DNA of 64,000 nt, taken from positions 32,001-96,000 of the IMG/VR virus record IMGVR_UViG_3300032327_000348; one strand, given 5' to 3'. Within the stretch, counting starts at the first letter, position 1; every line of letters begins with the position of its first letter. The DNA comes from a virus. Taxonomy: Duplodnaviria > Caudoviricetes. This document shows positions 6,583-40,140 of the stretch, piece by piece. The notes below the pieces were generated by a model. It had not been told where the DNA came from. It saw nothing but the letters and a program-made list of their open reading frames with translations, and made no database searches. The translations under genes were made by a program, and so were the position numbers.

Positions 6583-7641
6583 TTAACTCATGACCGCAAA
6601 AAACGGCAATGGAGCGACAAATTCATCGTGGTCACGAATCTGATTCTCTAAATCAAAGTGATAATCACTTAATTGCTGTAACATTCGTGTTACTAATAAA
6701 CTAGCCATGATCAAATCATCTGTATCACCAATCTTAGCCGCATAACTACCACCATGTGCCACAAATGCTTTTAATTCACTGATAAGACTACGACTATTTA
6801 TGGTCATTTTCTTACTTTCAACTAGAGTCTTAAACTTAGCGCAACTTGCTAGTTTACTCTTATTAGTTGTGTTGAATCCTCTACGACCTTTACCGGTTTC
6901 ACTGATAAAGATACCCGGAATACCTGATTCTCCGTATTCATTTAATGATACGATAGCGGCTTCACCAATACCATTACATTCAATACTGTAATAGATATTG
7001 TTAGGTTCTCCTGTACATTCTGCTATGTACTTGTTAATCTGAGACAATAATTTGATTTGGCTTGGAATGTCAGTTTTATTATGTTTCCATTCACCAATCT
7101 GTTTAGTAGTATTTGCTTCAAATATCTGAATAGCGGCTGGGTCACCACCTGTACCAAGACTTGGATCTAAACCTACACAATATAGATTACCCTTCTTAGG
7201 TGTGTCATACCAACGAACTTGTCCTATACGACTGACAGGTTCTATACCTTCCAGTGCAATTAATGTATTTGGATTGATAAGTGTTTCATCGGCAATAATA
7301 AATTCGCAATTGGAGCATAAAATTCCATTAGCATAAAATCTTTTATTATTTCCAACATTCACTAGATCATATACGGTTTCAATAGCATTTTCTTTTATTG
7401 ATATTACCTTCTGTACTCCGGCGGTTGTCCTAATTAATGCTCCGGCTGTAAGTTGTTCTACTCTTACCTTCTCGTATGACTCTGTAAATATTTCATGATC
7501 CGGAGTCAGTATTATTTGAGAATTCTCTAAAGTTAGAATAACAGTATGCATAACGCCTTTATTAACTAGGCCATCAAATGTCTGCCATCCTGAATCTGTT
7601 AAAACTTCCAAACCTAATTTATTTTTTAGTAACTCTACCAT
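6583..7641 (-). CDS. terL: Split-intein C-fragment (111 aa) fused to the terminase large subunit C-terminal nuclease domain
   Basis: Hint block B (LTPDH), block F (VYDL), block G (FYANGILCSN), then Cys+1 (CEFIIADET). Nuclease motifs VGLDPS.G.GGD, IECNG.G, DDLIMA. Confidence 0.92.
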   Translation of the reverse strand: MVELLKNKLGLEVLTDSGWQTFDGLVNKGVMHTVILTLENSQIILTPDHEIFTESYEKVRVEQLTAGALIRTTAGVQKVISIKENAIETVYDLVNVGNNKRFYANGILCSNCEFIIADETLINPNTLIALEGIEPVSRIGQVRWYDTPKKGNLYCVGLDPSLGTGGDPAAIQIFEANTTKQIGEWKHNKTDIPSQIKLLSQINKYIAECTGEPNNIYYSIECNGIGEAAIVSLNEYGESGIPGIFISETGKGRRGFNTTNKSKLASCAKFKTLVESKKMTINSRSLISELKAFVAHGGSYAAKIGDTDDLIMASLLVTRMLQQLSDYHFDLENQIRDHDEFVAPLPFFAVMS

Positions 7642-8293
7642 TTACAAACCCTTCGTGTTGCATTCCTTCTCTGAATTGTCTATTTTCTTTTCCATTATTA
7701 AACCATCTTAATCCTTTTTTGGATTGATTAGTTATTAATCGGCCTGCATTAAATCCTGCAGGTATAATGTCCCCGTAATATTCAGTTGTACCATCATTAA
7801 ACCATTTTTTACTTAAACTTGTACCTATTCTTCCTTTTTGTGCAATGCTTATATTTTTACACCTGACAGGATCTTTTAAATAATCATAATGATTTGGTTT
7901 AGACCTTGATTTGCGCTGAGATTCTCTTTCATCATCTGACCATAATGTTCCTTTATTGCGGCCGCCGTGTCCGGGTAATGTCAGACCCTTATTCCAGGGA
8001 ACACTATTTGTAGTTCCTTCGCCTCCGTCAGTTCTATTTCTCAAAATGCCGGTGCCTAAATCTTTTCTACCGTACCATTGAATCATCCGTCTTTCTAATG
8101 CAATAGCCCCTATTTCAGTAAGTTCTTGTTCTAAAATAGTAATATTATTATATGATGGGCGTTTAATATTTTCGTGTAATTGCCAAGCTCGTTTATTTTT
8201 ACCCTTACCAATATAATACGGTGTTCCGTCTGGCCTAAGATATGCATACACATAATATCCTGCAGGAATACGGTGAGGTGAATAAATAGTCAT
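7619..8293 (-). CDS. Free-standing GIY-YIG homing endonuclease
   Basis: YVYAYLRPDGTPYYIGKG...R motif, conserved E (ALERRMI), LRNRTDGGEG, NUMOD-like PWNKG, two WFN(D/N)G repeats. Probable start is ATG 8293 after AGGGAG (the track starts at 8365). Confidence 0.85.
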   Translation of the reverse strand: MTIYSPHRIPAGYYVYAYLRPDGTPYYIGKGKNKRAWQLHENIKRPSYNNITILEQELTEIGAIALERRMIQWYGRKDLGTGILRNRTDGGEGTTNSVPWNKGLTLPGHGGRNKGTLWSDDERESQRKSRSKPNHYDYLKDPVRCKNISIAQKGRIGTSLSKKWFNDGTTEYYGDIIPAGFNAGRLITNQSKKGLRWFNNGKENRQFREGMQHEGFVNGRVTKK

Positions 8294-8351
8294 GCTGATG
8301 CTCCCTAAAGCGTTAGAGTAGTTGGGAACGCCAATTCCGCGAACTACACTT

Positions 8352-9275
8352 TTATTTATCATCATTTAACATTTTCTCTAACTCTGCCATAGTAGCAGTA
8401 ATAACATTACCCGACGGATCTCTTAGAGTCATTTTAGTACTACCGTCGAAGCAACCAATCTCTCGATTGAAACGATCCTCACCAAGTTGAGCCTTCATCT
8501 CTTTAGCCCATTGGTCGTCACGGCCAGGTTGTTCATTCCAGTATGCTCTATAAGAACGGAATCCATTAACACCTAGTTCAGTTGTATTACCAAACTCATC
8601 TTCTGTCTTATTAGCACCTTTCCAGATCAATGCGAACTGATCCTCATCACTGTTTGGTGTGCTTGTGATAATAGCTTTACCACCAGTTGACAATGTAGGA
8701 GTAATAGCTGTCCAGAATTCTTTAGCGATACTTGGCCTAACGAACGCAAACTCGTCCAGATACAATAGTGTAATAGACATACCACGACCTGTGTTTTCAG
8801 TAGTTGTCGCACTAACAATACGACTACCGTTTTCAAAGTCTAGTGAACCTTTGTTATATGTCGTAACACCTGCTTTAATATAATCGGGACAGTTTTCATA
8901 TGCATATCGTATTCGTTGCATAATCTCCTGAGCACCTGTATACTTGTGTGCCGCAACTAAGATAGTACTGTCTGGTACAAACATGGCGTACCATAGCAAG
9001 TATCCGGCGGCTGACGTTGACTTACCTGATTGTCGAGGCATCAAACTAATAGAGAAACGATAATTGTGATATGTTTCAATCAATCGTTGTTGATAGGGCC
9101 AAGGATGATAAACCATACTACCCTTTGTAGGATGTTGTATCATAAAGAAGTTATCCATAAAGTATAGATAACCTGTATCCGGGTCACAGCATTTGATAAA
9201 ATCCTGTAGTTCTTTATCAGTTTTGAAAACTGTTTTAGTATAGGGATTTTTTACTAGTGATGGTGCATTACTCAT
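8352..9275 (-). CDS. terL: Terminase large subunit N-terminal ATPase domain fused to a 33-aa split-intein N-fragment
   Basis: PYQ adenine-binding motif, Walker A PRQSGKS, Walker B LLYLDEFAF, motif III ITSTPN. Ends REIG|CFDGSTKMTL..., an intein block A. Confidence 0.93.
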   Translation of the reverse strand: MSNAPSLVKNPYTKTVFKTDKELQDFIKCCDPDTGYLYFMDNFFMIQHPTKGSMVYHPWPYQQRLIETYHNYRFSISLMPRQSGKSTSAAGYLLWYAMFVPDSTILVAAHKYTGAQEIMQRIRYAYENCPDYIKAGVTTYNKGSLDFENGSRIVSATTTENTGRGMSITLLYLDEFAFVRPSIAKEFWTAITPTLSTGGKAIITSTPNSDEDQFALIWKGANKTEDEFGNTTELGVNGFRSYRAYWNEQPGRDDQWAKEMKAQLGEDRFNREIGCFDGSTKMTLRDPSGNVITATMAELEKMLNDDK

Positions 9276-23202: not shown

Positions 23203-23231
23203 AGTATAACACACATCGTGTATTTTGTCAA
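23203..23231 (-). promoter_or_regulatory. Sigma70-type early promoter (leaderless transcript)
   Basis: TTGACA-17 nt-TATACT with a TG extension. Confidence 0.8.
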
Positions 23232-23234
23232 ATT

Positions 23235-23261
23235 AAAAAAATAAGGACCGAAGTCCTTATT
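23235..23261 (-). terminator. Intrinsic terminator of the tmRNA gene
   Basis: AATAAGGAC-TTCG-GTCCTTATT (cUUCGg tetraloop) followed by a T-run. Confidence 0.88.
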
Positions 23262-23583
23262 GCTATTTTTGGTTACAAGGTATAACTACCTCGCTATTAG
23301 GCGTTTGCTGCCAATAGGAATTGTGAATCGTTTGCGATTACTTTGTTGTGCTTCTGCGACCGGGTCACCCCAATCCTAACGGCTTCTACATTGCCGGACT
23401 GTCCATTTCCGTACTCTTGACCCAATCGATCCTGTGTCAGGCCCATTAGAAAGTACACTAGCACCAGCAACCGGATCAGTGGCGGGGAATCGAACCCACG
23501 TTGATAGTGTACTTACTGGTGGACCCGGCGGGCACTGCCCCCGCGTCTTGAATCCTTTTCTATCTACTTCATACAGTCTTAAC
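23262..23583 (-). ncRNA. ssrA: Circularly permuted (two-piece) tmRNA
   Basis: Acceptor piece ends GCGGG-GGCAGTG-CCCGC-CGGGTCC-A-CCA (3' end 23517). 72-nt intervening segment. Coding piece starts GGGCCTG at 23444, giving an acceptor stem with G3:U70. Resume context TAATC|GCA; tag ANDSQFLLAANA then TAA TAG (23335-23294). Outer boundaries are approximate. Confidence 0.88.
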
Positions 23584-26500
23584 TCAATTGTATTTATTAC
23601 TAAAATACTCTTTTAGCCAAGGCCAATCATAACTTAGTCGTAGTTTGTCTAAATCACCATTGAATGATTCATAGTATTCTACAGCATCTGTGGCACCATC
23701 GATACTATATTGGGCAAAGTCACCTATACCTACAGTTGACCATGTTTTCAATCTGTCTCTACTTACCGGGCTATCATCTAACTTTAGCTTAATTGCTTCA
23801 CGGAAGCTAGTACGCCACGTACTAAATTCGTCAGTGTTGTATCTTGCAACACCGCTATTCAATTCAACAACTTCGTGTTCATTGTCCAACGTAAAGTCAA
23901 GACCTTTACCTATGTTACCCAATGTAATCTGTTTATTGTATGCAATCATAGCTTGGTGACCATACACTAATCCATTGACAGGGTTACTTGCATAAAAAAT
24001 ATAATGCTTTGGTACTTGTAATCTATCTGGTTGCCAACTGAAATCAAACCTACTGTTGACTCGTAACTTAGCAAATACAGTAAACATCCAAGGTGTGTTA
24101 CTTGCTTCTGCAGCCGCGTGATAGGCTTGTACACGACCATTTACACCATCAACTCTAACAACTCTATTAGATAACCCCTTAGTCACGCTCAGTAAGTGTT
24201 CATAGTTCTCGTCAGCGCCGGTTTCACCGTTGCTTAGGAAGACTATATCCAGTGGCCGGGATGTTGCTAGTTTGTTAGATTTAGCAATGTATGGGTAATC
24301 ATACAATTCATTGTTGACATATTCTTTGGCTTCTTTAGGTACAACAATACATGTTCCACCCGTACTAGTAATTAGTATGTTCTTAGATTCTTTTGACCAT
24401 AAACTAATTGGTTCATTGTCAACAACTTTTATTTCTTTGTTGTCTGATGTAATGAATGTAGCATAAGGCCAATCAAAATCAGTATTAGTAACAGAGACAT
24501 GTGTATCACTTTCAGTTATAAAGCTAGGAGCAGGTAAACGTTTTACTTGTTGATGTTGATTGAAGTTAATCTTATCGATATTTTCTAATGTATCTAAATC
24601 TTCAACCAATGTACGCAAACGGTTTACATTGATAAAGAATGTATCGCCGTATTTTTGTTTATCACTAGGGAATACATGCAGTTGTTCCAATGAGAACGGG
24701 TCACATATATAAGTGAAGTCAAAGTTAGTGTAGTCGCAGATAGAACTACACACCCAGATATAGTGATCTTTTTTAATACCCAACTCATACAGCATGTTCT
24801 TCAACGTAGACAAATAATCACCGTCATATTCAATGGTGTAAACATTCTTCTTTGTTTTGTTTTCAAGCAATGATATGATATTATCTATGTTATCATTGCC
24901 ATAGTCAATCAAGTACACATCATATATACAATTGCTTGCGAGTGCTCGTTTTGTTTTAACAAAATTGAGATTATTCAAATGTTCTATGATTTTTACATAC
25001 TTTGTGTCTTCGGGGAACGATTCTTTATTAACTAAGAAAGTTGTACCCCAATGACTCCATTGAGTACCAAACACATGTACCATTTTTTGTTGCCATGGAC
25101 TAGGGTAATAATCAAATGTAAAATCAGTATAATCTAGTTCACTGTTCAATATCCAACACAATTCTGTTTCAGATTTATTGATACAACGATTAATAGTATC
25201 AACCCAACTGTTTAAATACCTTGTCTTTTGAATCTTGGGATAACGTTTTTGTAATTCTTCAAAACGATATTTGCTTTCTATGTTGCTCTTATCAACAAAG
25301 AACATACTCAAGTTACTATCAACTTCAACTTTCTGATCCTCAACATAGTTAAACTCTCTATGACCCATCATGTATAGTGGTGCGTTAACATAGTAAGTTT
25401 GTGTGTTCTTACTATAGTCGTTGCCGAATACGTTAATGTGTCTAAAGTTTTCTTCGTTTGGTTTCCAATTAAAATCAAATTTATCATAATTCAAGTCAGG
25501 GTTGATAGCCCAGAATACTTCATCTTGATGTTGTAATATCAAATCTTCAAGTGTCGTTTTAATCTTGTAACGATTAACTACTGCCTTGCGGGTTTCTTCT
25601 GTTCGTTCCATGAACACAACTTCTGTTGCTCCGGGCACTGTGTATCTAGGACCGTTGTCAGCCCATTGATATATCTGAGGTGGACTGTGTGGGTTAGGTC
25701 TCCAACTAAAGTCAAATGTTTTTAAATCATCGTTGTTGTTTACTGTCCACAATGACATATCAATCTTAGGTATAGCAAGAGGATAGTCCATGTATTTTTT
25801 AATAGTGGCTCCGGGTACAATGTACTCTACTGTTGGTTCAGTCGCACTATCATTCCATTTGTTACCAAAGACATATATCATAGGTGGTTCATATAGATTA
25901 GGGTCAGGCCTCCATCTAAAATCAAAACTATTCATATCAATAGGAATAACTATATTCCATCTGTCCCATTCAGGTGCCAAGTCAACAATATCCATATACT
26001 TGTACTCAGTTGCACCCGGTACATGATATTCAATAGTGGGTTTTTGTTCTGCTGGATAAAATTTGTTACCCCATACATATATGTAGGGTGGACTTGTTGG
26101 GTCGGGTCTCCATGTAAAATCAAACTTAGTTCTATCCACTGGTTGAATTTCTCGCCATCTATCTAATTCAGGTAATACTTCAACCAATTCACTCATATAC
26201 TTGTACTCAGTTGCACCCGGTACATGATATTCAATTGTAGATTGTAATTCTCCGGCAACATGTTTGTTACCCCATACATATATGTAGGGTGGCTCGTGTA
26301 AGTTAGGATCCGGTCTCCATGTAAAATCAAACTTATTTCTATCCACTGGTTGAATCTCTTGCCATCTATCCCATTCTGGTTCTAAATCAACAATACCCAT
26401 GTATTTTTTATCAGTGGCGCCCGGTACTGTATATTCTAATGTAGGTTTAACTTCAGCAGGGTCATATTTGTTACCCCATACATATATGTAGGGTGGACTT

Positions 26501-27499: not shown

Positions 27500-29005
27500 T
27501 TATGATATAACTTTAACATTATACATTAATTCAAAGCGATCGGCATCTTTTCGGTTATTTACCATTGGCTCACCGCGGATGTTTAGGCTAGTGTTCAATA
27601 ACATTGGACATCCTGTCATGATATACCATTTTTCAAGGAGTTCTCGTATTCCACTTCCATCTGACGGCACTGTCTGGACACGACTAGTCCCGTCGTGATG
27701 AACAATAGCAGGAAATAAGTCAGGTACCCTACAACGGGCGATTGACTGCATATACCTGCTGTTACTGAAACCATGAGGCATATCAAAATACATATCAGCA
27801 TACTCCTCCAGAATGACTGGCGCAAATGGTCTAAATTTTTGTCTTCGTTTAATTTCATTTACTTTGTCCTTGATTTCTGTTCCTCTAGGGTCTGCAAGTA
27901 GGCTTCTATTTCCCAAGGCTCTTGGTCCAAACTCGGCTCGGCCATTGGCTACACCCACTATTTTATCGGATATTAATATATCAAGTAAATTGTTTACGGG
28001 ATATTTACCATCTATGTTATATCCTAGGTATGCATTACTCCATTCTACTTTATACCCATATCCTAAACAGGCTGCTCCAAGACTAGAACCAGCATCGCCG
28101 GGATTAGGCATGATCCATATATTATCAAAATAATTACCTAATAATCTATTCGCTAAACAATTTAACGCAACACCGCCACCGTATACTAAGTTCTTACTAC
28201 TACCTAACATTCGTGCTTTGCTAATAACATTTTTAATAAGTTCTTCAGCAATCAGTTGTGCGCTACAGGCAATGTCCATATTATCAGCACCCTCAATGAA
28301 ATCATCAGGTACTCCTATGTGTAAATTGTTTCTAAAAGTAATATCTTTATATGATTTTACTAATGTGTCAGACATTTCTTTTAATTCTTTTGATAGATTA
28401 GATTTGCCGTATGCTGCCATACCCATCAGTATGTATTCTTCATCCAACGGTTTTAGTCCCACTCTTTGTGTCATAGCACTATAAAATAAACCAATGCTAT
28501 GTGGATATGTTTGTCCCCACAATTTTTTATATTGTGCCAAGCCGTTCTTATCGTACCACGCATCATAAATGCTAATGGTATCAAATTCACCAATAGCATC
28601 AATAACAACCACCGTGGCATCATCATGAGGACTTGTTTGAAACCCTGCTGCCGCGTGACTTAAGTGATGGTTGTGTGTATGAACTTTGCCACCACGACCA
28701 TCTTGAAGATGATGTAATAATCTAGTACCAATTAATTCTTTAACAGACAAATTAGATAATTTAGGCTTTTCACCTGAACGCACTTGTCGTAAAAATTTCA
28801 TCCACGGGCGTTCATAGTAATGTATTTCTACGTCACGTGATGTGAGGTATGATATAGCATCTTCTATTAAACCATAGCATAGGTATTTGTTATGTTTGCT
28901 TTTACTGTACCGTTCGCTATGACCAGCAAATAATATATTACCATTGTCATCGAGTACGCTCAATGCGGCATCATGGAAGCCGCATGATATTCCAATATAG
29001 TTCAT
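27500..29005 (-). CDS. NodU/CmcH-family carbamoyltransferase
   Basis: GISCGFHDAA, HHLSHAA, DAIGE, MGMAAYG, GGVALNC, PGDAG, EFGPRALGNRS, FRPFAP, LNTSLN. Confidence 0.95.
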   Translation of the reverse strand: MNYIGISCGFHDAALSVLDDNGNILFAGHSERYSKSKHNKYLCYGLIEDAISYLTSRDVEIHYYERPWMKFLRQVRSGEKPKLSNLSVKELIGTRLLHHLQDGRGGKVHTHNHHLSHAAAGFQTSPHDDATVVVIDAIGEFDTISIYDAWYDKNGLAQYKKLWGQTYPHSIGLFYSAMTQRVGLKPLDEEYILMGMAAYGKSNLSKELKEMSDTLVKSYKDITFRNNLHIGVPDDFIEGADNMDIACSAQLIAEELIKNVISKARMLGSSKNLVYGGGVALNCLANRLLGNYFDNIWIMPNPGDAGSSLGAACLGYGYKVEWSNAYLGYNIDGKYPVNNLLDILISDKIVGVANGRAEFGPRALGNRSLLADPRGTEIKDKVNEIKRRQKFRPFAPVILEEYADMYFDMPHGFSNSRYMQSIARCRVPDLFPAIVHHDGTSRVQTVPSDGSGIRELLEKWYIMTGCPMLLNTSLNIRGEPMVNNRKDADRFELMYNVKVIS

Positions 29006-29118: not shown

Positions 29119-30459
29119 TTATTGTGTTTTACATTCATCGTAGAATTTTGCTAGTTCAGGAAACGTATTAACAAAATTCAAATTTCGCTTGCTATCAAAG
29201 TCATCAAACCATGTAGCAAATCTTTGTTTAAGCATAGTATTGTCATTCTTATTGAATCTAATGCCATCACGTAGTTTAATTAAAAAATCAGTATAACCGG
29301 GCCATGTGCCAAATTTGTCACTAACATCTGGCATATCTACTGATATACTTTGCATCCAATCAATTGCAGGATCTAAGTAGTCAGCAAATTCAAAAGGAAG
29401 TATGAACGGTGATTGAACGTCGGGATGTGTCACTATATTTTGTTTAAGCATAACTGCTTTGTTATGTGTCTTAGATAAATCATAGACCCACTTGAGAAAC
29501 TTAGGGAATCTTGGTATGGCCAACGCAGTGACGCTTGGTAAGAATGCCAATTCAATATCAGCCTTACTAGCAAATAATTTATTTACATTACTTTCAAAAC
29601 GATTCCACTCTAATCCATTGCGAATATATTCAGCTTGGTCATTCAATGCTTCCATACTAATGTGAACTTCTAATATGAACTTTTCTGACAGTTTAGGAAT
29701 GTATTCTAAAAACTTGTTATAGTAATTGTTTGTGGCATTTAGATTAGTAACCACCCAGATTCTAGTTTTAGGAACTTCTTTGTCAGCGTATACTTCTAAC
29801 AACTTGTCTAGAAAATCATAGAACTCAGGTGTAATTAGTGGTTCGCCCCCAATTATACCTATTCTGTCTAATGAATGTTTTGCCTTAGTATTGACCCATT
29901 CCCAAAATAAATTAATGAATCTTTCATTGGGATTTGATTGTACTTGCTTGTATATTTCTATATTGATAGAGTTGTTCTTCAAACTTTCAGCAGCCCATTG
30001 ACTACTGTATACGTGATTGCAATACATACACTTCATGTCACAAGTGTTGCCTAGACTTACTTCAAGCATGAATGGATTGTTGCTTTCTAGTATTTTACTG
30101 TCTATCGTTACTTGATTAGCAATCTCTATAAGTGTAGGAGGGGTGAATTCCTGAAACATCTGATGTTTGTTGGCATAATCTATAAACCCATATGGATTGT
30201 TACCCCTTAAACTCTTTGCTCCTGCTTGTTCAAGGCTCCAACAGCTTTTACAATCAGAATGTTGTACGCCTTGAAGCATTTCCATTCTTCGTTTCTTCTG
30301 ATAATCAGTATTTAGAAAAATGTCTGTTCCATACTCATCCATCATTCCATCATTGATAGTTTGAAAGGGTGTCTTACAACAAGTGCGAATTTCATTTCGA
30401 GACAGGCTAAAGTTAGGGTACCCCCAACGCAGGTGACATACGGTATCTTCATTATTCAT
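29119..30459 (-). CDS. Radical SAM protein with an N-terminal twitch/SPASM-like domain
   Basis: CDMKCMYC, GGEP, N-terminal C...CC...CxxCW. Probable start 30459 (track: 30477). Confidence 0.9.
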   Translation of the reverse strand: MNNEDTVCHLRWGYPNFSLSRNEIRTCCKTPFQTINDGMMDEYGTDIFLNTDYQKKRRMEMLQGVQHSDCKSCWSLEQAGAKSLRGNNPYGFIDYANKHQMFQEFTPPTLIEIANQVTIDSKILESNNPFMLEVSLGNTCDMKCMYCNHVYSSQWAAESLKNNSINIEIYKQVQSNPNERFINLFWEWVNTKAKHSLDRIGIIGGEPLITPEFYDFLDKLLEVYADKEVPKTRIWVVTNLNATNNYYNKFLEYIPKLSEKFILEVHISMEALNDQAEYIRNGLEWNRFESNVNKLFASKADIELAFLPSVTALAIPRFPKFLKWVYDLSKTHNKAVMLKQNIVTHPDVQSPFILPFEFADYLDPAIDWMQSISVDMPDVSDKFGTWPGYTDFLIKLRDGIRFNKNDNTMLKQRFATWFDDFDSKRNLNFVNTFPELAKFYDECKTQ

Positions 30460-30542
30460 AATTGTATTTAGTAACATGTTTTTGTAAAATTTATTAATTT
30501 ATGACTGAAAACAGCCCCTGATAAATACCATATAAAGGATTT

Positions 30543-31589
30543 GTGATGGAGATAACACCTGGAAAACCCATAAGAACATATGGCGTGAACGGATCATGGA
30601 GAGATTGGTCAACTGACGAACTAGTTGGAGCAAAATTAAACTACTTAACTGATTGGAAGTGTGGGGCCGGCGTCGATAGTTTATTCATCGATATGGATGG
30701 TGGTGTTTGGACTGCCAGTTGCAGAGTGGGAGGTAAGTTGGGTAGTGTTTGGGATGATTTTAGTGTACCTGAAGATTGGATTAATTGTACTAAAAATGTC
30801 TGTAGTTGCGGTGCTGACTTGTTCATCCCAAAAACAAGTACACTAGAATACAAACCCTTATTGCGTAAGGGTCAAGATTTACCTACCCAGCACGAATTAC
30901 GAAATGATGAATTAACAGAATTTGTTGGTATGGAGCGCACTCATGCTAGTACACAAAAACAAGTGTACTGGGAAATAGGTCGTAGATGTAATTACGATTG
31001 TAGTTATTGCTGGCCCTGGATTCATAATAATACCGACCCACACAAGCCACTAGAAGATTTAATGAGGGCTACTCATTTGATTGAAACTAAATTCACCAAA
31101 GGTGAGAGTGTTAATTTCATTATTAGTGGTGGAGAACCAACCGTCAATAAAGATTTCTTAGATTGGTTACGATACTTAAATGCATGTGGACACCATGTGA
31201 GTTTACATAGCAACGGCTCACGATTACCTGACTATTACAAAGAGATTATTCATTATGGTGATTTGAACCTTAGTGTTCACTACGAGTTTTATGACCGTGC
31301 TAAATTTGTCAAGGTCGTTGAAGCAATTGCTAAAGAAAAATCTGAACACGGTGATTGTGGTCACTTAGAAGTTAAGTTCATGATGGCTCCGCATAATCGT
31401 GAGGAAACATTAAGTTTGGAAGCAGAATTAAAAGAATTGCCATTTTTCAAAGAATACTGTACATGGGCTATTGTTCCTATTCGCGGTGATTTGAATAACA
31501 AGACTAGTGCCCCTAATACAGGGTCGGGAAGTGAAGTCATGATTGGTTACACTAAAGAAGATTATATTTTGTTTGGGGATAGAAAATAA
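30543..31589 (+). CDS. Radical SAM protein with an N-terminal auxiliary Fe-S domain
   Basis: CNYDCSYC, SGGEPT, HSNGSR. N-terminal WKCGAG...C...C...CSC. Confidence 0.9.
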   Translation: MMEITPGKPIRTYGVNGSWRDWSTDELVGAKLNYLTDWKCGAGVDSLFIDMDGGVWTASCRVGGKLGSVWDDFSVPEDWINCTKNVCSCGADLFIPKTSTLEYKPLLRKGQDLPTQHELRNDELTEFVGMERTHASTQKQVYWEIGRRCNYDCSYCWPWIHNNTDPHKPLEDLMRATHLIETKFTKGESVNFIISGGEPTVNKDFLDWLRYLNACGHHVSLHSNGSRLPDYYKEIIHYGDLNLSVHYEFYDRAKFVKVVEAIAKEKSEHGDCGHLEVKFMMAPHNREETLSLEAELKELPFFKEYCTWAIVPIRGDLNNKTSAPNTGSGSEVMIGYTKEDYILFGDRK

Positions 31590-34193
31590 ATGGCAATGGA
31601 TAAAGACACCTGGATTGCAGAAAATCTAATTCCAAAAAATACTGAAGCAAACACGACCAGACGACCTAGAAATAATGTAAAATCTGTTGGAGTTAAAATT
31701 GGTCATCGAAAAACAAAGATGACATTATGTGTATTAGGTAGTTGGGCTATTTATATGCCTCCTTATAATTTAGCTAGACTAACTGGATTAATGCGTGAAG
31801 CCGGATACACTACTACAGTATATGATTTTAATGTGGAATCACACTATGCACTTAAAGAGGCTAATCCAGATTTAGATGATGCTTGGAACGGAGCAAACTA
31901 TTGGTGGTGGCAGGGTGACGAATATTATAAGCGAATTCATCCTACATATGAACCTATTCTTAAAGAATACTTAGAAATCTTATTAGATGACAATCCAGAT
32001 ATTATAGGGTTCAGTACTTACTATACCAACTTGTTACCTACTAAGTGGATGATTAAAGAGATTCGCAATAGAAGGCCCGATATCACAATTGTCATGGGCG
32101 GACCTGAATGTCACGAAAATTACTATGAAAGGCCGACGGAAATAGATTATTATTTCATCGGAGAGAGCGAGCAAAACATTTTAGATTTCCTAGAGAATTG
32201 GGAAAACGGCATTAAACCAGAAAAACCGGCTATAGGTAGTTTATACAGTGATACACGTATTGACATTGATAGCTTACCTTATCCCGACTATAGTGACTTT
32301 GATCTAACTAAGTACTGGGGCAAGAATAGTATCTGTGCTGAAATCAGTAGAGGGTGCATTGCCAAATGTAGTTATTGCACTGAAGTATATTATTGGAAGT
32401 TCCGTGACCGTGGTGCTAATAATGTAGTAGATGAACTAGAATATCAAGTTAAAAAATACGGGATTAATTTTGTGTCATTTGTTGATAGTTTAATGAACGG
32501 TAACTTGAAAGAGTTTAGAAGTTTTTGCCAAGAATTAGTTGATAGAAAATTAGGAGTTAATTGGTGGGGATATGCTAGAGCTGATGGTAGAATGGATTTA
32601 GAATTCTATAAATTAATGAAGGCGGCGGGTGCCCAAGGATTCAATTATGGAATTGAGACCGGTAGCGATAAAGTTTTAAAGGCTATCAATAAGAAAAATA
32701 CAGTAGCAGAAATTAATCAAAATATCATTGACTCTGATAAAGTGGGTATGAAAGTATCTGCATGTTGGGTCATTGGCGCGCCGGGTGAGGATATTGAGGC
32801 TTTTACGCATAGTTTTAACATGTTATGGAATCATAGAGCAAGAATTATAGCATGTAGTCCGGGCCCTGGTTTGGGTGATAATATGGGTTCTGCGTATGAT
32901 GATAGAGAAAAGTTTAATTTAAACCCAAGAAATAAGCCATGGCTAGGTGGATGGTATACATTAGATTTAATGAACACAAAGTTACATAGACACATTAGAA
33001 TTAAACTAATGCATATTTGGTTACATCTATGTAAGGAGTATGGTGGTACTATTACTAATGTACATAGTTCAGAGGGAGATATTACCGATCATTTTGAATT
33101 GAAATTTGATTCAGAATACATAAATGAACATGTTGAATATGAAAATTTTGATTTTAATATTATTAAATCAGGACATGGAATGTTTGCTGATAGTGTAATG
33201 AATGAAGTATTTGGATTTTTTAGAATGTTGTGGAGAGTGCGTGGAGGATTTGAAATGACATTGAATTTTAATTCAGAATTAGACCACAGAGATTTTATAT
33301 TCACTATTGCTCCCGATTCACATACATATACTGCTAAGTTGTATTTTAAAATAGATGACGCAGGTAATTATATTACTAAATGTGATTTTAACTTTGTTAA
33401 TAACTTTAAAGATATAGTTAGTATGGATGGTTTTAATTATACACATGAAGATGTTGGTCAATGGACAGAGGCAACCAAAACTAAAATAAATAAAATATTT
33501 TTTATTAAATCAGACACAGTAGTTCCCAATGTATTACCTATTGAGAGTTGCTTCTCATCTATATCGGTAGAAGAACGTTTTATGCTGTTACGTATTTCAA
33601 AGTATCTTAAGCCAAATAGTGTAGTATTAGAAACTAATTCAGGATTGGGCGGACGTGCATCTATTCTAGCAAGAGCTAATAGAAATATAAGTATTCATTC
33701 TATTGAATCATTCAATGTGGATTCGTTAAAGAATGAGTTTGATTCTATGCAATCATGGATTAGAGAACAACTATTCGATATATGCAAAGACAATAATATA
33801 GATAAGAAAATAGGGTATGATCTATTACAATCTATACAAGAAGATTTTCAGTATGATACTACCGGTAAGTCAGTGTGGCAGCGTATTACAAAAAAATATT
33901 CTAATATACAATTACATCATACATCAGATTTTGTAGATTGGAATACTCCATTGGATATTTGTTTAATTAATATACACCAGAATCCTATTTTTAAAACTAA
34001 TTTAGAATTTTGGTCTAAACATGTTAAACCTGAAGGATATATTATAGCACATTTATACCATGAAACATACGGAGTTGATGTTTATAATGGTATAAATGAA
34101 TTATTAAACCATGGATGGAAAATAGTTGAAAAGGTAGACACTTTGATATGTATCCAACGTAATACATCTAATCTAAACACTTATCTTCTTTAA
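31590..34193 (+). CDS. Cobalamin-binding radical SAM protein fused to a degenerate class I methyltransferase-like domain
   Basis: B12-binding region (PDIIGFS, VMGGP, GESE), SRGCIAKCSYC, GIETGSD.VL...NK, IGAPGE. C-terminal VVLETNSGLG...VKPEGYIIAH. Confidence 0.88.
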   Translation: MAMDKDTWIAENLIPKNTEANTTRRPRNNVKSVGVKIGHRKTKMTLCVLGSWAIYMPPYNLARLTGLMREAGYTTTVYDFNVESHYALKEANPDLDDAWNGANYWWWQGDEYYKRIHPTYEPILKEYLEILLDDNPDIIGFSTYYTNLLPTKWMIKEIRNRRPDITIVMGGPECHENYYERPTEIDYYFIGESEQNILDFLENWENGIKPEKPAIGSLYSDTRIDIDSLPYPDYSDFDLTKYWGKNSICAEISRGCIAKCSYCTEVYYWKFRDRGANNVVDELEYQVKKYGINFVSFVDSLMNGNLKEFRSFCQELVDRKLGVNWWGYARADGRMDLEFYKLMKAAGAQGFNYGIETGSDKVLKAINKKNTVAEINQNIIDSDKVGMKVSACWVIGAPGEDIEAFTHSFNMLWNHRARIIACSPGPGLGDNMGSAYDDREKFNLNPRNKPWLGGWYTLDLMNTKLHRHIRIKLMHIWLHLCKEYGGTITNVHSSEGDITDHFELKFDSEYINEHVEYENFDFNIIKSGHGMFADSVMNEVFGFFRMLWRVRGGFEMTLNFNSELDHRDFIFTIAPDSHTYTAKLYFKIDDAGNYITKCDFNFVNNFKDIVSMDGFNYTHEDVGQWTEATKTKINKIFFIKSDTVVPNVLPIESCFSSISVEERFMLLRISKYLKPNSVVLETNSGLGGRASILARANRNISIHSIESFNVDSLKNEFDSMQSWIREQLFDICKDNNIDKKIGYDLLQSIQEDFQYDTTGKSVWQRITKKYSNIQLHHTSDFVDWNTPLDICLINIHQNPIFKTNLEFWSKHVKPEGYIIAHLYHETYGVDVYNGINELLNHGWKIVEKVDTLICIQRNTSNLNTYLL

Positions 34194-35040
34194 TTTTATG
34201 TGCAATAATTGTAGCAAAACTTTTTACTGAATCTAAATTTGGATGTGCATTTTTAGGAGAAACCCAAAATTTTGGGTTTTGCCCAGTAACCTCTAAGAGT
34301 GCACTAGTCCACGATTCTCCTACAGATGGGTGTATATCCTCAGTTGGAGTAAAATTAACCCAACATTTAGCATCTAATGATTCGACTAGGCGAAGTGTAT
34401 CTACGAAAATTCCAGAATTAAATGATAGAGATTGTTTTGTAAAATCGTTAGAAGAGCCTAATGCTCGATAAAAAGTATAAGATATACCATTTAATCGTAG
34501 AAAATTTTCTAAAAGCAATATATTTTTAATATAGTTAATATACAAATCTACCTCATCCGCGTTTATTAAAACAACTTTTATATAATCTTCATAATCTAAT
34601 ACAAAATCATTTTTTCCTAACTGATTAGGATTTAAATTTATAAAACCTTTTGATTTTTTAATAAATTTCATAGCTCTAGCAATACTAGACCATCCTATTA
34701 CTACGTGATAGTTATGTCTATCTTCTATTGGAATAGACAATATATAATTTACAGTAGATAGTGAAATCATATCGTTGCTTTTTCCTTCATTCGACAGATC
34801 AATTTTATTATCAGTATCGATACCTACTAACTCAGATACAACGTGTGGCAAGTTATATTTTCTCTTATAAACGTTGTGGTACTCATTCCAAGTATCTCTG
34901 TTTTCATTAGTATGTTGTTTTGACGAAACCGTCGTAAACCATTCCCATGATAACTTATTACCTACTTCTTTTGAATAATTATCCCATACAAGTTCGTCAC
35001 CTGCCATAAAACTACAACCATTAAACACTATTTTTTTCAT
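34168..35040 (-). CDS. SGNH/GDSL-like hydrolase or acyltransferase-like protein
   Basis: N-terminal FNGCSF (GDS-like), DLS..GKSN, IGWS...R, C-terminal HPN. Confidence 0.65.
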   Translation of the reverse strand: MKKIVFNGCSFMAGDELVWDNYSKEVGNKLSWEWFTTVSSKQHTNENRDTWNEYHNVYKRKYNLPHVVSELVGIDTDNKIDLSNEGKSNDMISLSTVNYILSIPIEDRHNYHVVIGWSSIARAMKFIKKSKGFINLNPNQLGKNDFVLDYEDYIKVVLINADEVDLYINYIKNILLLENFLRLNGISYTFYRALGSSNDFTKQSLSFNSGIFVDTLRLVESLDAKCWVNFTPTEDIHPSVGESWTSALLEVTGQNPKFWVSPKNAHPNLDSVKSFATIIAHKIKEDKCLD

Positions 35041-35042
35041 AA

Positions 35043-36191
35043 TTAAATTTCCCTAATAGGTATTATTTTTTTATTTATCACTTGCTCTCTTGCTGACTGT
35101 TTGTTATACCAATTAGATATTTGTTTATTAACAAAATGATTTAACTTCTCCCAATTGCCATGAGCTACATAGTTTGAAAAATCTGTTGGTTTTAGTTCTT
35201 CAACATGTGGTTCTAATGTTTGTAGAATAACTCCTAAATTTTGACTAGGCAATTTCCAAATACTCAAATGCTCAGGATGATGAATAGTATTATACCACAA
35301 ATTAACTTCATGTTTAGTAGTAAACCGAACAAATTCAGGCATTTCCCACCAGTTGTTATTCATAGGATTAACCATGACACTTAATCCACGATTATTATCT
35401 TTACAGTATTGCTTGAATGTTTGAAAGTTTTCCATCAAATCATCAAAGTTTCCGTTGATTCTAATCGACTCATAGTTTTCTTTATCTAAACTGTCAATAC
35501 TAATATTCAAGTGAATATTACACTTGTCTAATATTTCACGCACTTGCTTGTTATACACGGTACCGTTAGTGGCAATGTTGATTCGTAATGATGGATTAAT
35601 CTGTGCTACAAGCATACAAATATCATATACAATTTTTTGTGCGAACGGTTCACCGCCGTTGAATCTAAGTTCTTCTAAATGGGGGATAAATTCTTTCAAT
35701 TGTTCCACAAAACTATCATCATATACCATTGGCATAGGTGGTAGTTTATCTCTGTTTTTTCTAATACCAGAACTTAATCTACCGTCACACATTACGCATT
35801 CTAAATTGCACTGGTTACTTAACTCTAATTCTAATACAGTTGGATAGTCTTTCACACTAAAACCATCATATGCTAATGCTAATGGCCAAGTGTCTGCTTC
35901 TATTTTCTGTTTACATACTCTACATTCACTATTAAATATACCTTCTTTTAATTGATTTCTATATTGAGTAAATTTTTCACCAAACCATATATCTTTAATT
36001 GACCTAGTAGTTGACCATTTATCAACATGTCCAACTAATAACCAGCATGGAGCTACATTACCTTCAACAGTAAAATACATATTGTTCAACGGGGCGATAC
36101 ACGGACTTATTGTGTTGATTTCTCTACTTTGGTCAAACTCTTTCCGTTTGATATTGTATGTGTCAATCTGTTCTTGCGTTAGTTTATTCAT
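35043..36191 (-). CDS. Radical SAM protein with an N-terminal SPASM/twitch-like domain
   Basis: CNLECVMC, GGEPF, TNGT, ISIDS. N-terminal C..P...PCW...CRVC. Confidence 0.92.
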   Translation of the reverse strand: MNKLTQEQIDTYNIKRKEFDQSREINTISPCIAPLNNMYFTVEGNVAPCWLLVGHVDKWSTTRSIKDIWFGEKFTQYRNQLKEGIFNSECRVCKQKIEADTWPLALAYDGFSVKDYPTVLELELSNQCNLECVMCDGRLSSGIRKNRDKLPPMPMVYDDSFVEQLKEFIPHLEELRFNGGEPFAQKIVYDICMLVAQINPSLRINIATNGTVYNKQVREILDKCNIHLNISIDSLDKENYESIRINGNFDDLMENFQTFKQYCKDNNRGLSVMVNPMNNNWWEMPEFVRFTTKHEVNLWYNTIHHPEHLSIWKLPSQNLGVILQTLEPHVEELKPTDFSNYVAHGNWEKLNHFVNKQISNWYNKQSAREQVINKKIIPIREI

Positions 36192-37365
36192 CTTTGTATT
36201 CCATAACTAAATTACCCCATTCACCAAACGTGGTCTTAAAATCTTGTTGTCTAAATTTATCTAGTTCTTCATTCTTGCTAATGAATTCATTGATAAGTGA
36301 ATCACTGTCTCTGGATAAATGCAAGAAGTTTTTAACAATATCAAAGTCTTTGTGAGTTAAACGAGCAGACACTATTTCTTTTAATTTATCTGGTAAATTT
36401 TTTATACTATGACTAGGAGGGTAATGTAATATGTTATAGTAGGTGAATAAGTCCATTGATTTAGCCCACTCTAAGTATTCTGGCATGTAATAGATATTAA
36501 ACGAACTAACAGTTGGACACAATGTTAGGAACAAATTCTTATTGTTCTTTTTCAACTCTACAAATTTTGTAATATTTTCTTGTACTACATTCCATTCAGT
36601 AGGGTAGCGTTCATACTCTAATCTAGCACCTAAATCATCAATTGATAGGCACAATGTTATTTCTTTGAACTGAAGTATGTTATCTAAAAATTTCTTATTA
36701 TATAAGGTGCCATTGGTGTTCAATAATACTGATATGTTTTTTGCTTTACCTGACTTGATTAATAAGTCTAGAATTTTTATATTTTCTGGACTTGCCAATG
36801 GTTCACCACCAGTAACCTCTAAGTGAATCAAGTCTTCTGCCCACTTGTTAATAACTTCTTCGTTAGATGTTCCTAATATCTTATTACTAATCCAATAATC
36901 ACTACCCTCAATTGTTACGTTCAACCGTTCTTGATATTCTTTTAAAAATGTAGAGCTTGCTTGCGGTCCACATATTCTACATTTAAGATTACATACATTG
37001 TTTAATTTCAAATCCATAGCACGTGGTCCACCGGTGGCTATAGTCTCAAACACCATACCAGTCGTATCTACTTTTTTATCAATAGACCATTGTAGTCTAA
37101 AACTCTTGATTCCGGCGGCTTCTTCGTCCCAGCAGCTTTGGCATTCTTTGGGACGTTTGCCATCTAAGAACGCTTGTCTTAAATTTTGAAATCTAATATC
37201 ATTCCATAATACATTTAGTTTGCCTTCTTTCATGTTAGGCAATTGATACTCATTTGAAATATCAGGTTGTGCGAATTTACAACATGGACGCAATGATCCA
37301 TTAACGTCAGTTGATATGTTAGTCCATGGCAGTGAACAAAATGAGTCAGGCAATTGATTACTCAT
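36184..37365 (-). CDS. Radical SAM protein with an N-terminal twitch domain
   Basis: CNLKCRIC, GGEPL, TNGT. N-terminal FCSLPW...PCC...CQSCW. Confidence 0.92.
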   Translation of the reverse strand: MSNQLPDSFCSLPWTNISTDVNGSLRPCCKFAQPDISNEYQLPNMKEGKLNVLWNDIRFQNLRQAFLDGKRPKECQSCWDEEAAGIKSFRLQWSIDKKVDTTGMVFETIATGGPRAMDLKLNNVCNLKCRICGPQASSTFLKEYQERLNVTIEGSDYWISNKILGTSNEEVINKWAEDLIHLEVTGGEPLASPENIKILDLLIKSGKAKNISVLLNTNGTLYNKKFLDNILQFKEITLCLSIDDLGARLEYERYPTEWNVVQENITKFVELKKNNKNLFLTLCPTVSSFNIYYMPEYLEWAKSMDLFTYYNILHYPPSHSIKNLPDKLKEIVSARLTHKDFDIVKNFLHLSRDSDSLINEFISKNEELDKFRQQDFKTTFGEWGNLVMEYKDE

Positions 37366-38755
37366 ACTTCTTTAACATCTCATATAGTTTAGGAAAAGTA
37401 TCGTTGAATGAATCTTTACGATAATCATCATGTAAACGTGTTTTATCAAAAAATGTTTTTAACAGTTCTTCATCATATTTAGATCCATACATAAAATTAA
37501 TAATATTGTCAATGGAGGGCGACCAATTGGTCAATAGATTGTGTACATCTATAGATAGCAATTGTTCTTTAATTATATCTTTAACTTCATTGGGAAGATT
37601 TACAATAGAATAATGATGCGGGTAATGGACTAAATTCAATACTACTTGCATGCCATAGTCTTTAACAAACTCAAAGAATTCTTTTAGATATAACACATTT
37701 AGTATACCAACTGTTGTATAGAATTTTAATATTATGTTAACGTTGTACTTTGCAGCCAATTCTTTATATTGTGCAATATTTTGCAATACTTCATCCCACT
37801 TAGCATTCTTACGTTGAAATTCAAAACGAGAACCAATATCGTCTATACTAAAGTTTATTCCAACTTCCTTAAAGGGAGCCCATAGTTTAAAGAATTCTTC
37901 ATCACAAATAGTACCGTTGGTATTGTAGTACAGACTAGTATTTGCCGGTGTGCCGAACTCATTTATAATACGTAATATTTTATCATGCTCTTGTTGCATT
38001 AATGGTTCGCCGCCATAGAATTCTAAATATTCAATAGTAGGAGCCCATTGTTTTAATATTTCTTCATTGTTAAGATTCTCAGAAAACTTTTCTCTTGCAT
38101 TGCTAGTAAAAGTTTTAACATCACCCATATCAATAACTTTTAAATCAATTATTTCTTTCATCCACTGAGTACTTAAAAAAGGTGTGCATATTCTACACTT
38201 GAGATTGCACAAATTACTTAGTTTTAAATCTAAAGTTTTTGGATACAGTCTAGGTATATGATGGAAAAATGTAGCATAGGGATGTTCTTTACCGCCCTTT
38301 TCTTTAGTTAGCCTCATACTGGGTATGCCAGCGGCTTCTTCATCCCAGCATGCCTTGCAACCAGTGGGACGTTCATTTCTAAGAAACTGATCTCGTAAAT
38401 TTTGAAATTCAGGCTGCTCCCATAATTCACCTATATCTACCTCAGGTAATTTAGGAACATTTTGTTGCCATGTAGGATCACCTACTTTATACTTACAACA
38501 AGGACGTGCTCTACCATCTGGATCTAATTGAAAATGTGTAAAGGGATATAAACAAAAATTATCCGGGACCTGTTTTCTCAAAGTTTCGGTATATTCAGGT
38601 TCATACCCCGGTTCTTTACCGTAATGTGGAGAATTTTTAATAATACTCAATAAATCTAAATTATAGGTTTCATCAAGTAATTTACTAGTAAACCATACAA
38701 AAGATCCTTTACCGTCATCTTCTTTATAGATAGGTATGAATTGTTTCTTATCCAT
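37358..38755 (-). CDS. Radical SAM protein with an N-terminal twitch domain
   Basis: CNLKCRIC, GGEPL, TNGT. FCLYPF...PCC...CKACW. Paralog of 36184..37365. Confidence 0.92.
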   Translation of the reverse strand: MDKKQFIPIYKEDDGKGSFVWFTSKLLDETYNLDLLSIIKNSPHYGKEPGYEPEYTETLRKQVPDNFCLYPFTHFQLDPDGRARPCCKYKVGDPTWQQNVPKLPEVDIGELWEQPEFQNLRDQFLRNERPTGCKACWDEEAAGIPSMRLTKEKGGKEHPYATFFHHIPRLYPKTLDLKLSNLCNLKCRICTPFLSTQWMKEIIDLKVIDMGDVKTFTSNAREKFSENLNNEEILKQWAPTIEYLEFYGGEPLMQQEHDKILRIINEFGTPANTSLYYNTNGTICDEEFFKLWAPFKEVGINFSIDDIGSRFEFQRKNAKWDEVLQNIAQYKELAAKYNVNIILKFYTTVGILNVLYLKEFFEFVKDYGMQVVLNLVHYPHHYSIVNLPNEVKDIIKEQLLSIDVHNLLTNWSPSIDNIINFMYGSKYDEELLKTFFDKTRLHDDYRKDSFNDTFPKLYEMLKKYE

Positions 38756-40140
38756 TATAAACCTTTACACATGTTATAAAAGTCAGTGTATTCTGGGAAT
38801 GTGCCAGTTAACTGTAATCCTCTGCGTGAATCATAAGTGTCAAACCACTCAGCGAATTTCTTTCTGTCATTTAATCTATCAATTGATTGATTGTTAATAC
38901 CATCAATAATAGTTTGTAGGAATTTAGCATACGCTGACCATGTACCAAGTGAATCTTTTACAGGTGGCATTGATTCAGCATTATCATTTAGATACTGTAT
39001 TGTATCTTCTATGTATGGAATAAAGTCTTGTGACAATATCATCGGACTTTGCCAACTAGGGAAGCTAACTAAGTTTTGCTTCAATGTGACTGGTCTACCA
39101 TGTTTTTCGTATAGTTCTTTTGTGTAGGCAATAAAGTTTTTACTACTGGTTATATTCAATGCGTTAACACTCATGATGAACCCAAAATCAAACTCTAGTT
39201 CTTTGTTGGATAATATCGTATCGATGTTCTTAGTGAATCGTTCCCAACTAACGCCATTGCGAATGTACTCTGCTTTGTCTCCCACACTCTCCATGCTACC
39301 TAATATTTCTAAGTTAAATACTTTGGATATCTTGGGTAGATACTGCATTACCTTCTGAAGATAATTTGATGGTGTATTAAAGTTACTTACTATCCATAGT
39401 GTAATCTTTTCTTTGCGTGTATGATTAATTTCTTCAACGCTAGCAATAACTTTATCCATGAAAGTATAGAACTCAGGCATGATTAGTGGTTCGCCACCAA
39501 TCAATCCAAGTCGTGTTATACTATGGCGTCCAACCTTATTAAACCATTCCCAGAACTTACCGTCAAAACTAGTGGGTGCTTTGGGAAATTCTCTATCGTA
39601 TTGTTCTTGTGTTATCTCGTTATATTTGATGCGCTCAGTTGCCCACTGTGTAGAATAATGATGACTACAATACATACACTTCAAGTCGCATGTATTTCCC
39701 ATACTGATTTCCAACATGTATGGTTTGTAACTATACAACGCTGGATGATTTATATCATTGATTTTACTTAATTCTAGTGAAAGTTTTTCATCAGAATATT
39801 CACTAGGTGCTACTTGTTTAGACTTGATTAATTGCCACCACATTTGTTTAGGATGATGGCGTGGACTCTGTATGCCTGATTCTTCTAGTCGCCAGCAACT
39901 GACACATGCTTCAGTTTTACGACCTTGTATCAAGTCCAATCGTTCTTGCCGTTGCTTTGGAGAATTCAAGAAAGCATCAACGCCAAATTCTTGTAACTCG
40001 TTCTCTGTTACTAGACTAGTAGGCGTTCTACAGCAACTTCTAAACTCACCCCTATCCATACCAAATATAGGATAGTTCCATTTTAAATCGCATATAGTGT
40101 CTAATGGGCCAACATTAGTTGCATTAGTTATTATTTTCAT
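38755..40140 (-). CDS. Radical SAM protein with an N-terminal twitch domain
   Basis: CDLKCMYC, GGEPL. CDLKW...SCC...CVSCW. Paralog of the 29119 gene. Confidence 0.92.
   Translation of the reverse strand: MKIITNATNVGPLDTICDLKWNYPIFGMDRGEFRSCCRTPTSLVTENELQEFGVDAFLNSPKQRQERLDLIQGRKTEACVSCWRLEESGIQSPRHHPKQMWWQLIKSKQVAPSEYSDEKLSLELSKINDINHPALYSYKPYMLEISMGNTCDLKCMYCSHHYSTQWATERIKYNEITQEQYDREFPKAPTSFDGKFWEWFNKVGRHSITRLGLIGGEPLIMPEFYTFMDKVIASVEEINHTRKEKITLWIVSNFNTPSNYLQKVMQYLPKISKVFNLEILGSMESVGDKAEYIRNGVSWERFTKNIDTILSNKELEFDFGFIMSVNALNITSSKNFIAYTKELYEKHGRPVTLKQNLVSFPSWQSPMILSQDFIPYIEDTIQYLNDNAESMPPVKDSLGTWSAYAKFLQTIIDGINNQSIDRLNDRKKFAEWFDTYDSRRGLQLTGTFPEYTDFYNMCKGL

Follow-up and report, generated by a model that had tools for sequence, protein, structure and literature searches.

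Does a phage carry its own working ribosome-rescue RNA, split into two pieces and encoded in permuted order? The question is raised by a locus on the minus strand of a 64,000-nucleotide stretch of viral DNA, hereafter the window, which comprises bases 32001-96000 of the linear IMG/VR virus record IMGVR_UViG_3300032327_000348 (111,934 bp). An earlier note on this DNA had read the locus as a phage-encoded, circularly permuted transfer-messenger RNA (tmRNA) gene under a late promoter. Our sequence comparisons indicate that it is very probably a functional two-piece tmRNA gene of a jumbo phage, one whose tag peptide has an uncommon ending and which belongs to a large viral family.

A probable two-piece tmRNA gene on a phage contig

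The Rfam model for permuted tmRNAs (RF04321, tmRNA_permuted) matched positions 23578-23297 over its whole length (model positions 1-213) with 85.8 bits, against a cut-off of 47 (E 5e-15). Together with a second match of 52.1 bits to alpha_tmRNA (RF01849), this places the tmRNA call far above chance. ARAGORN run at 90% of its default threshold (-ps90) also reported a permuted tmRNA, its tag reading ANDSQFLLAANA and ending at UAA UAG. The order of the parts is that of a permuted gene: T arm, acceptor 3' strand and CCA all come before the acceptor 5' strand, with every part on one DNA strand. Each sequence element described in the earlier note was found on the minus strand where it had been placed, and both ends given for the two pieces, the CCA at 23517 and the 5' end at 23444, proved correct (Table 1). 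The attribution to a phage also held, as the window encodes a UvsX-like recombinase, a gp32-like single-stranded DNA-binding protein and a split large terminase, in addition to thymidylate synthase and a structural protein.

Several observations weigh against this assignment. With default settings ARAGORN reported no tRNA or tmRNA in either the 64-kb window or the full 112-kb record, and supported the gene only at the lowered threshold. The alpha_tmRNA score passed its cut-off of 50 marginally and came mainly from the tRNA-like domain, and beta_tmRNA (RF01850) stayed below its cut-off (56.2 bits versus 84). In addition, the T loop is non-canonical, and the tag ends in ANA instead of LAA and may therefore fail as a degradation signal. 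The default ARAGORN search thus misses a tmRNA gene (23235-23597) that RF04321 finds easily, and surveys relying on ARAGORN alone would consequently undercount phage tmRNAs. Low-threshold tRNA calls around the gene were judged not credible.

The acceptor stem of seven base pairs (G1-C, G2-C, G3:U, C4-G, C5-G, U6:G and G7-C), formed by GGGCCUG and CGGGUCC, carries the alanine identity that had been claimed for it: G3:U70 is intact, the discriminator is A and CCA is encoded. The two pieces can pair as proposed through GAUUCAA/UUGGGUC (7 bp) and GACUGU/ACAGUC (6 bp), which correspond to P2 of the Rfam model. Sequence comparison revealed compensatory changes among relatives in P2a, P2b and hairpin Hb. 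The T loop GGCAGUG is of the alphaproteobacterial type, as had been noted, and the D-loop analogue is likewise.

Table 1. Coordinates of the tmRNA gene, its parts and associated signals (window numbering), with open reading frames nested in related loci (contig numbering)
Feature	Position	Strand	Basis or remark
Permuted tmRNA gene, complete	~23584-23235	minus	Rfam, ARAGORN -ps90 and pairings
ATAAATA motif	23591-23597	minus	7/8 bases of T4 late consensus TATAAATA; here AATAAATA
Acceptor piece	23517-23584	minus	Rfam alignment and family covariation of T stem, acceptor stem and P2; 5' end predicted
P2b 5' strand GACUGU	23578-73	minus	
P2a 5' strand GAUUCAA	23554-48	minus	
T stem GCGGG/CCCGC	23544-40 / 23532-28	minus	
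T loop GGCAGUG	23539-33	minus	
Acceptor 3' strand CGGGUCC	23527-21	minus	
Encoded ACCA	last base 23517	minus	discriminator A plus CCA
Intervening segment	23445-23516	minus	72 nt, no open reading frame; predicted to be removed by processing
Closing stem AGUACACUA/UAGUGUACU	23513-05 / 23460-52	minus	
T-arm-like element ACGUGGGUUCGAUUCCC	23485-23501	minus	imperfect stem, no CCA end
Coding piece	23235-23444	minus	acceptor 5' strand, D-loop analogue, P2 3' strands, Ha, Hb, tag, pseudoknot, terminator
Acceptor 5' strand GGGCCUG	23444-38	minus	
D-loop analogue ACACAGGAUCGA	23437-26	minus	
P2a 3' strand	23425-19	minus	
P2b 3' strand	23402-23397	minus	
Hairpin Ha	23396-80	minus	
Hairpin Hb	23375-58	minus	
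Tag frame	23294-23335	minus	ARAGORN -ps90; resume codon GCA, ANDSQFLLAANA, UAA UAG; end within helix 5 (23317-23294)
H-type pseudoknot	23262-23292	minus	covariation; same helix in Rfam beta_tmRNA annotation
Pseudoknot S1 GAGGU/ACCUU	23292-88 / 23281-77	minus	
Pseudoknot S2 GUUAU/AUAGC	23286-82 / 23266-62	minus	
Intrinsic terminator	23235-23261	minus	9-bp stem, UUCG loop, then U run; compensatory changes among relatives
Nested frame, L132	2889-3245	plus	
Nested frame, L180	1857-2222	minus	
Nested frame, L182	967-1170	minus	
Nested frame, L158	1013-1204	plus	
Nested frame, L141	10082-10237	plus	
Nested frame, L176	3004-3081	plus	

Covariation across a viral family

Relatives of the gene were collected from viral contigs with a loose acceptor-end pattern and then with an exact 22-mer from the pre-tag region, which is common to at least 119 IMG/VR viral contigs. 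Because insertions and deletions made helix counts at fixed offsets noisy, the structure was parsed from the pairing itself, with shuffled controls. In its strict form, applied to 121 loci, this parse accepted only loci with a T stem of 5 bp, a loop of 7 nt and, correctly spaced, an acceptor stem of 7 bp containing G3:U70. It succeeded at 103 loci, compared with no more than 3 of 121 in shuffled controls. The parsed loci resolve into 32 variants of the tRNA-like domain with 11 T stems and at least six acceptor stems, and G3:U70 is present in all 32. The T loop covaries with the D-loop analogue: GGCAGUG occurs with ACACAGGAUCGA, UUCGACU with CCAUGGUUUCGA or ACCAGGCUAUCG, and UGCAACU with AAUUAGAAUCGA. 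Taken with the changes in P2, these covarying domains strongly indicate that selection maintains a functional alanine-accepting domain and the pairing between the pieces. The domain in the window is the commonest type (42 loci) with one base different, and the U6:G wobble of its acceptor stem is unique within the family. In several members the acceptor stem is followed by ACCU, ACCG or GGAA where ACCA would be expected; a CCA-adding enzyme would thus have to repair such 3' ends.

The same data bear on whether the locus could be a decaying or non-functional copy, either an attP-type remnant, tmRNA genes being frequent sites of integration, or a fragment of a host ssrA gene acquired through recombination. 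The ARAGORN score below the default threshold, the family-unique U6:G wobble and a degenerate T arm within the intervening segment would all fit such a copy, and ssrA fragments are often carried by phages (PMC9004378). However, all parts of the gene are present and correctly paired, the family shows covariation instead of decay, the phage is of the lytic jumbo type, and an exact-pattern scan of 185,579 bacterial species genomes returned no near-identical bacterial gene. We therefore regard a decayed copy as very unlikely. In that scan, which as an exact search would not reach more distant bacterial relatives, the acceptor 31-mer gave no match and a 30-mer from the PK1 region gave a single exact match, on a phage-looking contig (L119, NZ_JBBAKG010000001.1). 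This 183-kb contig belongs to a metagenome-assembled genome labelled Haliscomenobacter and carries a tmRNA of the family that lacks an encoded CCA and has the tag ANDSQYLVAANA. Two distinct jumbo-phage UvsX genes, with 81% and 79% identity to that of the window, are also in this assembly. Phage contigs may have been binned with a Bacteroidota genome, or else the assembly is a weak hint at the host.

It is more improbable still that the conserved element is a small protein and not an RNA. Two candidate frames, of 57 amino acids at 23297-23470 (minus) and of 60 amino acids at 23434-23616 (plus), appear in the mechanical list of open reading frames. Nevertheless, the covariance-model match and the RNA pairings account for the conservation, and in relatives the intervening segment and Hb have gained or lost stretches of arbitrary length, which would break both frames.

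Modular composition of the family

Different parts of these genes resemble different classes of two-piece tmRNA. In several relatives the alpha model covers only the tRNA-like domain (model positions 84-170). Two loci with the same body and a canonical T loop, L094 and L020, score 115-120 bits with the beta model, and the pseudoknot and terminator of the window gene align to that model. The window gene would accordingly be best described as combining an alpha-like tRNA-like domain with a body closer to the beta type, its whole-gene scores with the two models being close. One relative, L191, has a tag and 3' module almost exactly as in the window and a quite different tRNA-like domain, and unrelated tags occur on loci with identical tRNA-like domains. 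As judged from these sequences, the tmRNA modules are mosaic across the family.

In the permuted gene both halves of the tRNA-like domain are adjacent, between the conserved P2 strands, and a single exchange could therefore replace the entire domain. This suggests a tentative scenario, which we hold to be possible, though less likely than not: a tmRNA lineage confined to uncultured jumbo phages may swap whole tRNA-like domains as cassettes, in which case the alpha/beta mixture in the window would be the outcome of one swap, the degenerate T arm would be left over from the displaced cassette, and the AANA tag ending would have been selected because it alters what becomes of tagged proteins.

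The family is abundant (at least 119 IMG/VR contigs) in a jumbo-phage clade and lacks a near-identical bacterial counterpart. It amounts to a natural mutagenesis series, with many tRNA-like domains on one body and varied tag endings including AANA, that could serve for studying recognition by SmpB, alanyl-tRNA synthetase and RNase P as well as degron specificity.

Pseudoknot and terminator at the 3' end

A pseudoknot after the tag had been proposed in which a GUUA loop pairs with UAAC. The presence of a knot at this position was borne out, and its loop partner had to be revised. Across relatives the hairpin loop varies (ACUAU, GCUAU, AUUAU, UGACU, GUAAC) and the adjoining sequence is constant, and a segment 10 nt further downstream covaries with the loop (AUAGU, AUAGC, AGUUA/AGUUG, GUUAC). 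The pairing of the loop with the segment that reads AUAGC in the window (23266-62) was complete in 8 of 23 distinct strand combinations, compared with a mean of 1.0 and a maximum of 4 for shuffled partners, and two-sided changes were found at all five pairs of this helix, S2, among 57 distinct sequences. GUUA and UAAC are complementary in the window, but this pairing was complete in only 2 of 17 distinct combinations; in the same 57 sequences two-sided changes occurred at one of its four pairs, and changes in the loop abolished complementarity. In the resulting H-type knot loop 1 is a single A and loop 3 is GUAACCAAAA. Family members with either of two other loop types, AAGACA or AGGAAA, are without the S2 pairing, and the pseudoknot is thus not universal.

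Upstream of the tag two hairpins, Ha and Hb, were found, and no PK1 tertiary pairing was resolved there. The UUCG terminator predicted downstream of the gene was confirmed.

The intervening segment

The segment between the two pieces folds into a hairpin that prolongs the acceptor stem (fold z = -3.2), and its ends pair likewise in 65 of 71 unique segments of the family. Within it, ACGUGGGUUCGAUUCCC agrees at 16 of 17 bases with the T arm of another tRNA-like-domain type of the family, a match equalled by none of 2,000 shuffles. The element may be what is left of a tRNA or of a displaced cassette, or else a weakened version of the T-arm mimics that some relatives have intact. Intact mimics, which occur in 4 of the 71 unique segments where 0.6 would be expected by chance, may act as processing signals. 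They are perfect in L123, L143, L171 and L174, with a 5-bp stem, a UUCRANU loop and covarying stems, and for L123 and L174 relaxed ARAGORN settings fold almost the entire segment into a tRNA-like cloverleaf.

In 6 of the 71 unique segments an open reading frame of 26-123 amino acids, preceded by a Shine-Dalgarno sequence, fills the segment (0.5 in shuffles), ending 1 nt ahead of the coding piece's G1 (Table 1). None of these nested frames matched a Pfam or PHROG family. A protein gene nested within a tmRNA precursor appears to be undescribed so far.

The tag peptide

The tag frame begins with an alanine resume codon and ends with a hydrophobic, alanine-rich C terminus and a stop, its final ANA differing from the usual LAA. 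Literature searches with the tag sequences gave no match. Eight loci of the family have tags ending in AANA, with four different sequences (ANDSQFLLAANA, ANDDTFLLAANA, ANDETYLLAANA and ANDSQYLVAANA), and their A-N-A codons vary between GCA AAC GCC and GCU AAC GCU. Because the codons differ, the ending appears to be kept by selection on the peptide.

The terminal LAA-COOH of ssrA tags is what ClpX reads. An AANA ending could hence alter the fate of tagged proteins, and we weighed the reading that the RNA does enter stalled ribosomes while its main role is something other than ordinary tagging for degradation: the ending might spare proteins from ClpXP or direct them to another fate, or the phage RNA might compete with the tmRNA of the host. 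The conservation of AANA across differing codons speaks for it, as does a mycobacteriophage precedent, a tmRNA of phage DS6A that has no tag frame and inhibits host tmRNA, according to a passage of PMC11915505 citing that work. On the other hand, most family members have the ordinary endings ALAA, LMAA or RLAA, and the basic role of the family is therefore probably standard ribosome rescue. On balance we consider a departure from tag-and-degrade unlikely, though less so than a decayed gene, and retain the reading of a functional rescue RNA.

Candidate promoter signals

The late promoter assigned to the gene stands in part. The motif ATAAATA is present, overlapping the last codons of an upstream frame of 1,301 amino acids (stop TGA at 23586-84), and conservation in the family starts about 8 nt downstream of it. 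In the 112-kb record 19 of the 44 ATAAATA copies (43%) are followed within 60 nt by a gene start on their own strand, the range for the 20 further heptamers of identical composition being 1-18%, and the genes that follow include the N-terminal half of the terminase and structural genes. The exact consensus TATAAATA is depleted in the window (2 copies versus 12.4 expected). ATAAATA is thus a plausible promoter signal of this phage; that it would act late is suggested by analogy with T4.

At the equivalent place relatives have promoters of the sigma-70 type. One such promoter of near-consensus sequence (TTGACA, 17 nt, TATACT, with an upstream TG) also occurs in the window directly after the terminator, at 23203-23231 (minus), and serves the small gene that comes next. 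Both types of signal thus seem to be used by the phage.

Carrier phage and proposed mode of action

From its gene content and protein identities, the carrier is judged to be a jumbo phage akin to CBB and GAP32. The UvsX of the window shares 71% identity with those of Pectobacterium phage CBB and Cronobacter phage GAP32, and 65-67% with those of Agrobacterium, Sinorhizobium and Vibrio jumbo phages. CheckV put the completeness of the record at 32%, so the entire genome should measure about 350 kb. The same tmRNA family is found in three relatives with a completeness of 95-100% (352, 340 and 332 kb), and the UvsX proteins of the 352-kb and 340-kb genomes are 78-80% identical to that of the window. 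The earlier note had found no smpB in the window; neither the whole 112-kb record nor these three relatives yielded an SmpB, from which we infer dependence on SmpB of the host.

We propose the following mode of action. A single precursor would be transcribed from a few bases downstream of ATAAATA to the UUCG terminator. Host tRNA-processing enzymes would then act on it, RNase P cutting 5' of G23444 and trimming of the 3' end leaving CCA at 23517, and the 72-nt intervening hairpin would be lost. The products, about 68 nt (acceptor piece) and about 205 nt (coding piece) long, would be held together by the acceptor stem, P2a and P2b. Host alanyl-tRNA synthetase would charge the RNA by virtue of G3:U70, and host SmpB and EF-Tu would bring it to ribosomes stalled on broken mRNAs, where translation would resume at GCA, add ANDSQFLLAANA and terminate. 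The likely benefit for the phage is that ribosomes are kept free while host mRNA is being destroyed; the earlier note had suggested that the RNA might also counter translation-arrest defences.

Comparison with known two-piece tmRNAs

Phage tmRNAs are known, including those of huge phages (PMC7162821). The 2025 tmRNA database holds 79 bacteriophage sequences (PMC11915505), and a tmRNA has been annotated in the Sinorhizobium jumbo phage AP-J-162 (PMC11242549). A two-piece tmRNA was described in the Methylophilales phage Melnitz, along with 53 two-piece structures in deposited phages, 50 of them marine or aquatic (Buchholz et al. 2022, PMC9004378). Because two-piece tmRNAs of phages are already on record there, the novelty of our finding is modest. 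The kind is known; for the family of the window gene itself, no relative turned up in deposited phages, nor, by exact search, any near-identical copy in bacteria. BLAST against 50,697 deposited phage genomes returned no match for the whole region and only noise for the coding piece. Nothing here overturns present understanding.

Melnitz, the pelagimyophages and cyanophages likewise encode a permuted ssrA, with no phage smpB reported. Both the Melnitz type and the window gene occur in T4-related phages of aquatic bacteria, and in both the tmRNA lineage may differ from that of the host. The window gene stands apart from the Melnitz type in its carrier, a jumbo phage of about 350 kb, in its AANA tag ending, and in that no glutamine riboswitch was detected in it.

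A closer comparison is offered by the cultured Sinorhizobium phage Phosso, a relative of AP-J-162, whose UvsX is 67% identical to that of the window and whose permuted tmRNA scores 113 bits. Like the window gene it has the alpha-type T loop and D-loop analogue, UGAU before G1 and an intervening segment closed by a stem. In contrast to the window gene, it is alpha-type throughout, its tag is ANDNVSTKVALAA, and its intervening segment measures about 390 nt. No permuted tmRNA was found in four further relatives in culture: CBB, GAP32, Vibrio 2.275.O and Atu_ph07.

The alphaproteobacterial two-piece tmRNA (RF01849), exemplified by Caulobacter and reportedly described by Keiler et al. in 2000, has the same gene order as the window gene, a GGCNGUN T loop, the D-loop analogue AGGAUCGA and a single pseudoknot after the tag. 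The T arm and acceptor region of the window gene resemble those of Erythrobacter phage XM05, Caulobacter phage CcrPW and Mesorhizobium phage Cp1R7A-A1. Its 52.1 bits with the alpha model nonetheless fall short of the 72.8-118 bits of true alpha members on viral contigs. With the betaproteobacterial type (RF01850), said to have been described by Sharkady and Williams in 2004, the window gene shares the 3' pseudoknot loop CCUUGUNACCAAA and a terminator hairpin at the end, and its family has tags of the FALAA type; the window gene's score lies below that model's cut-off, and its tRNA-like domain is not of the beta type.

Neighbouring genes

The large terminase is encoded at 6583-9275 (minus) by two open reading frames with another between them. 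At least five radical SAM genes are clustered at 29119-40140, adjoining a carbamoyltransferase gene (27500-29005), and a reading frame of more than 5,300 amino acids at 48038-64000 (minus) runs past the end of the window.

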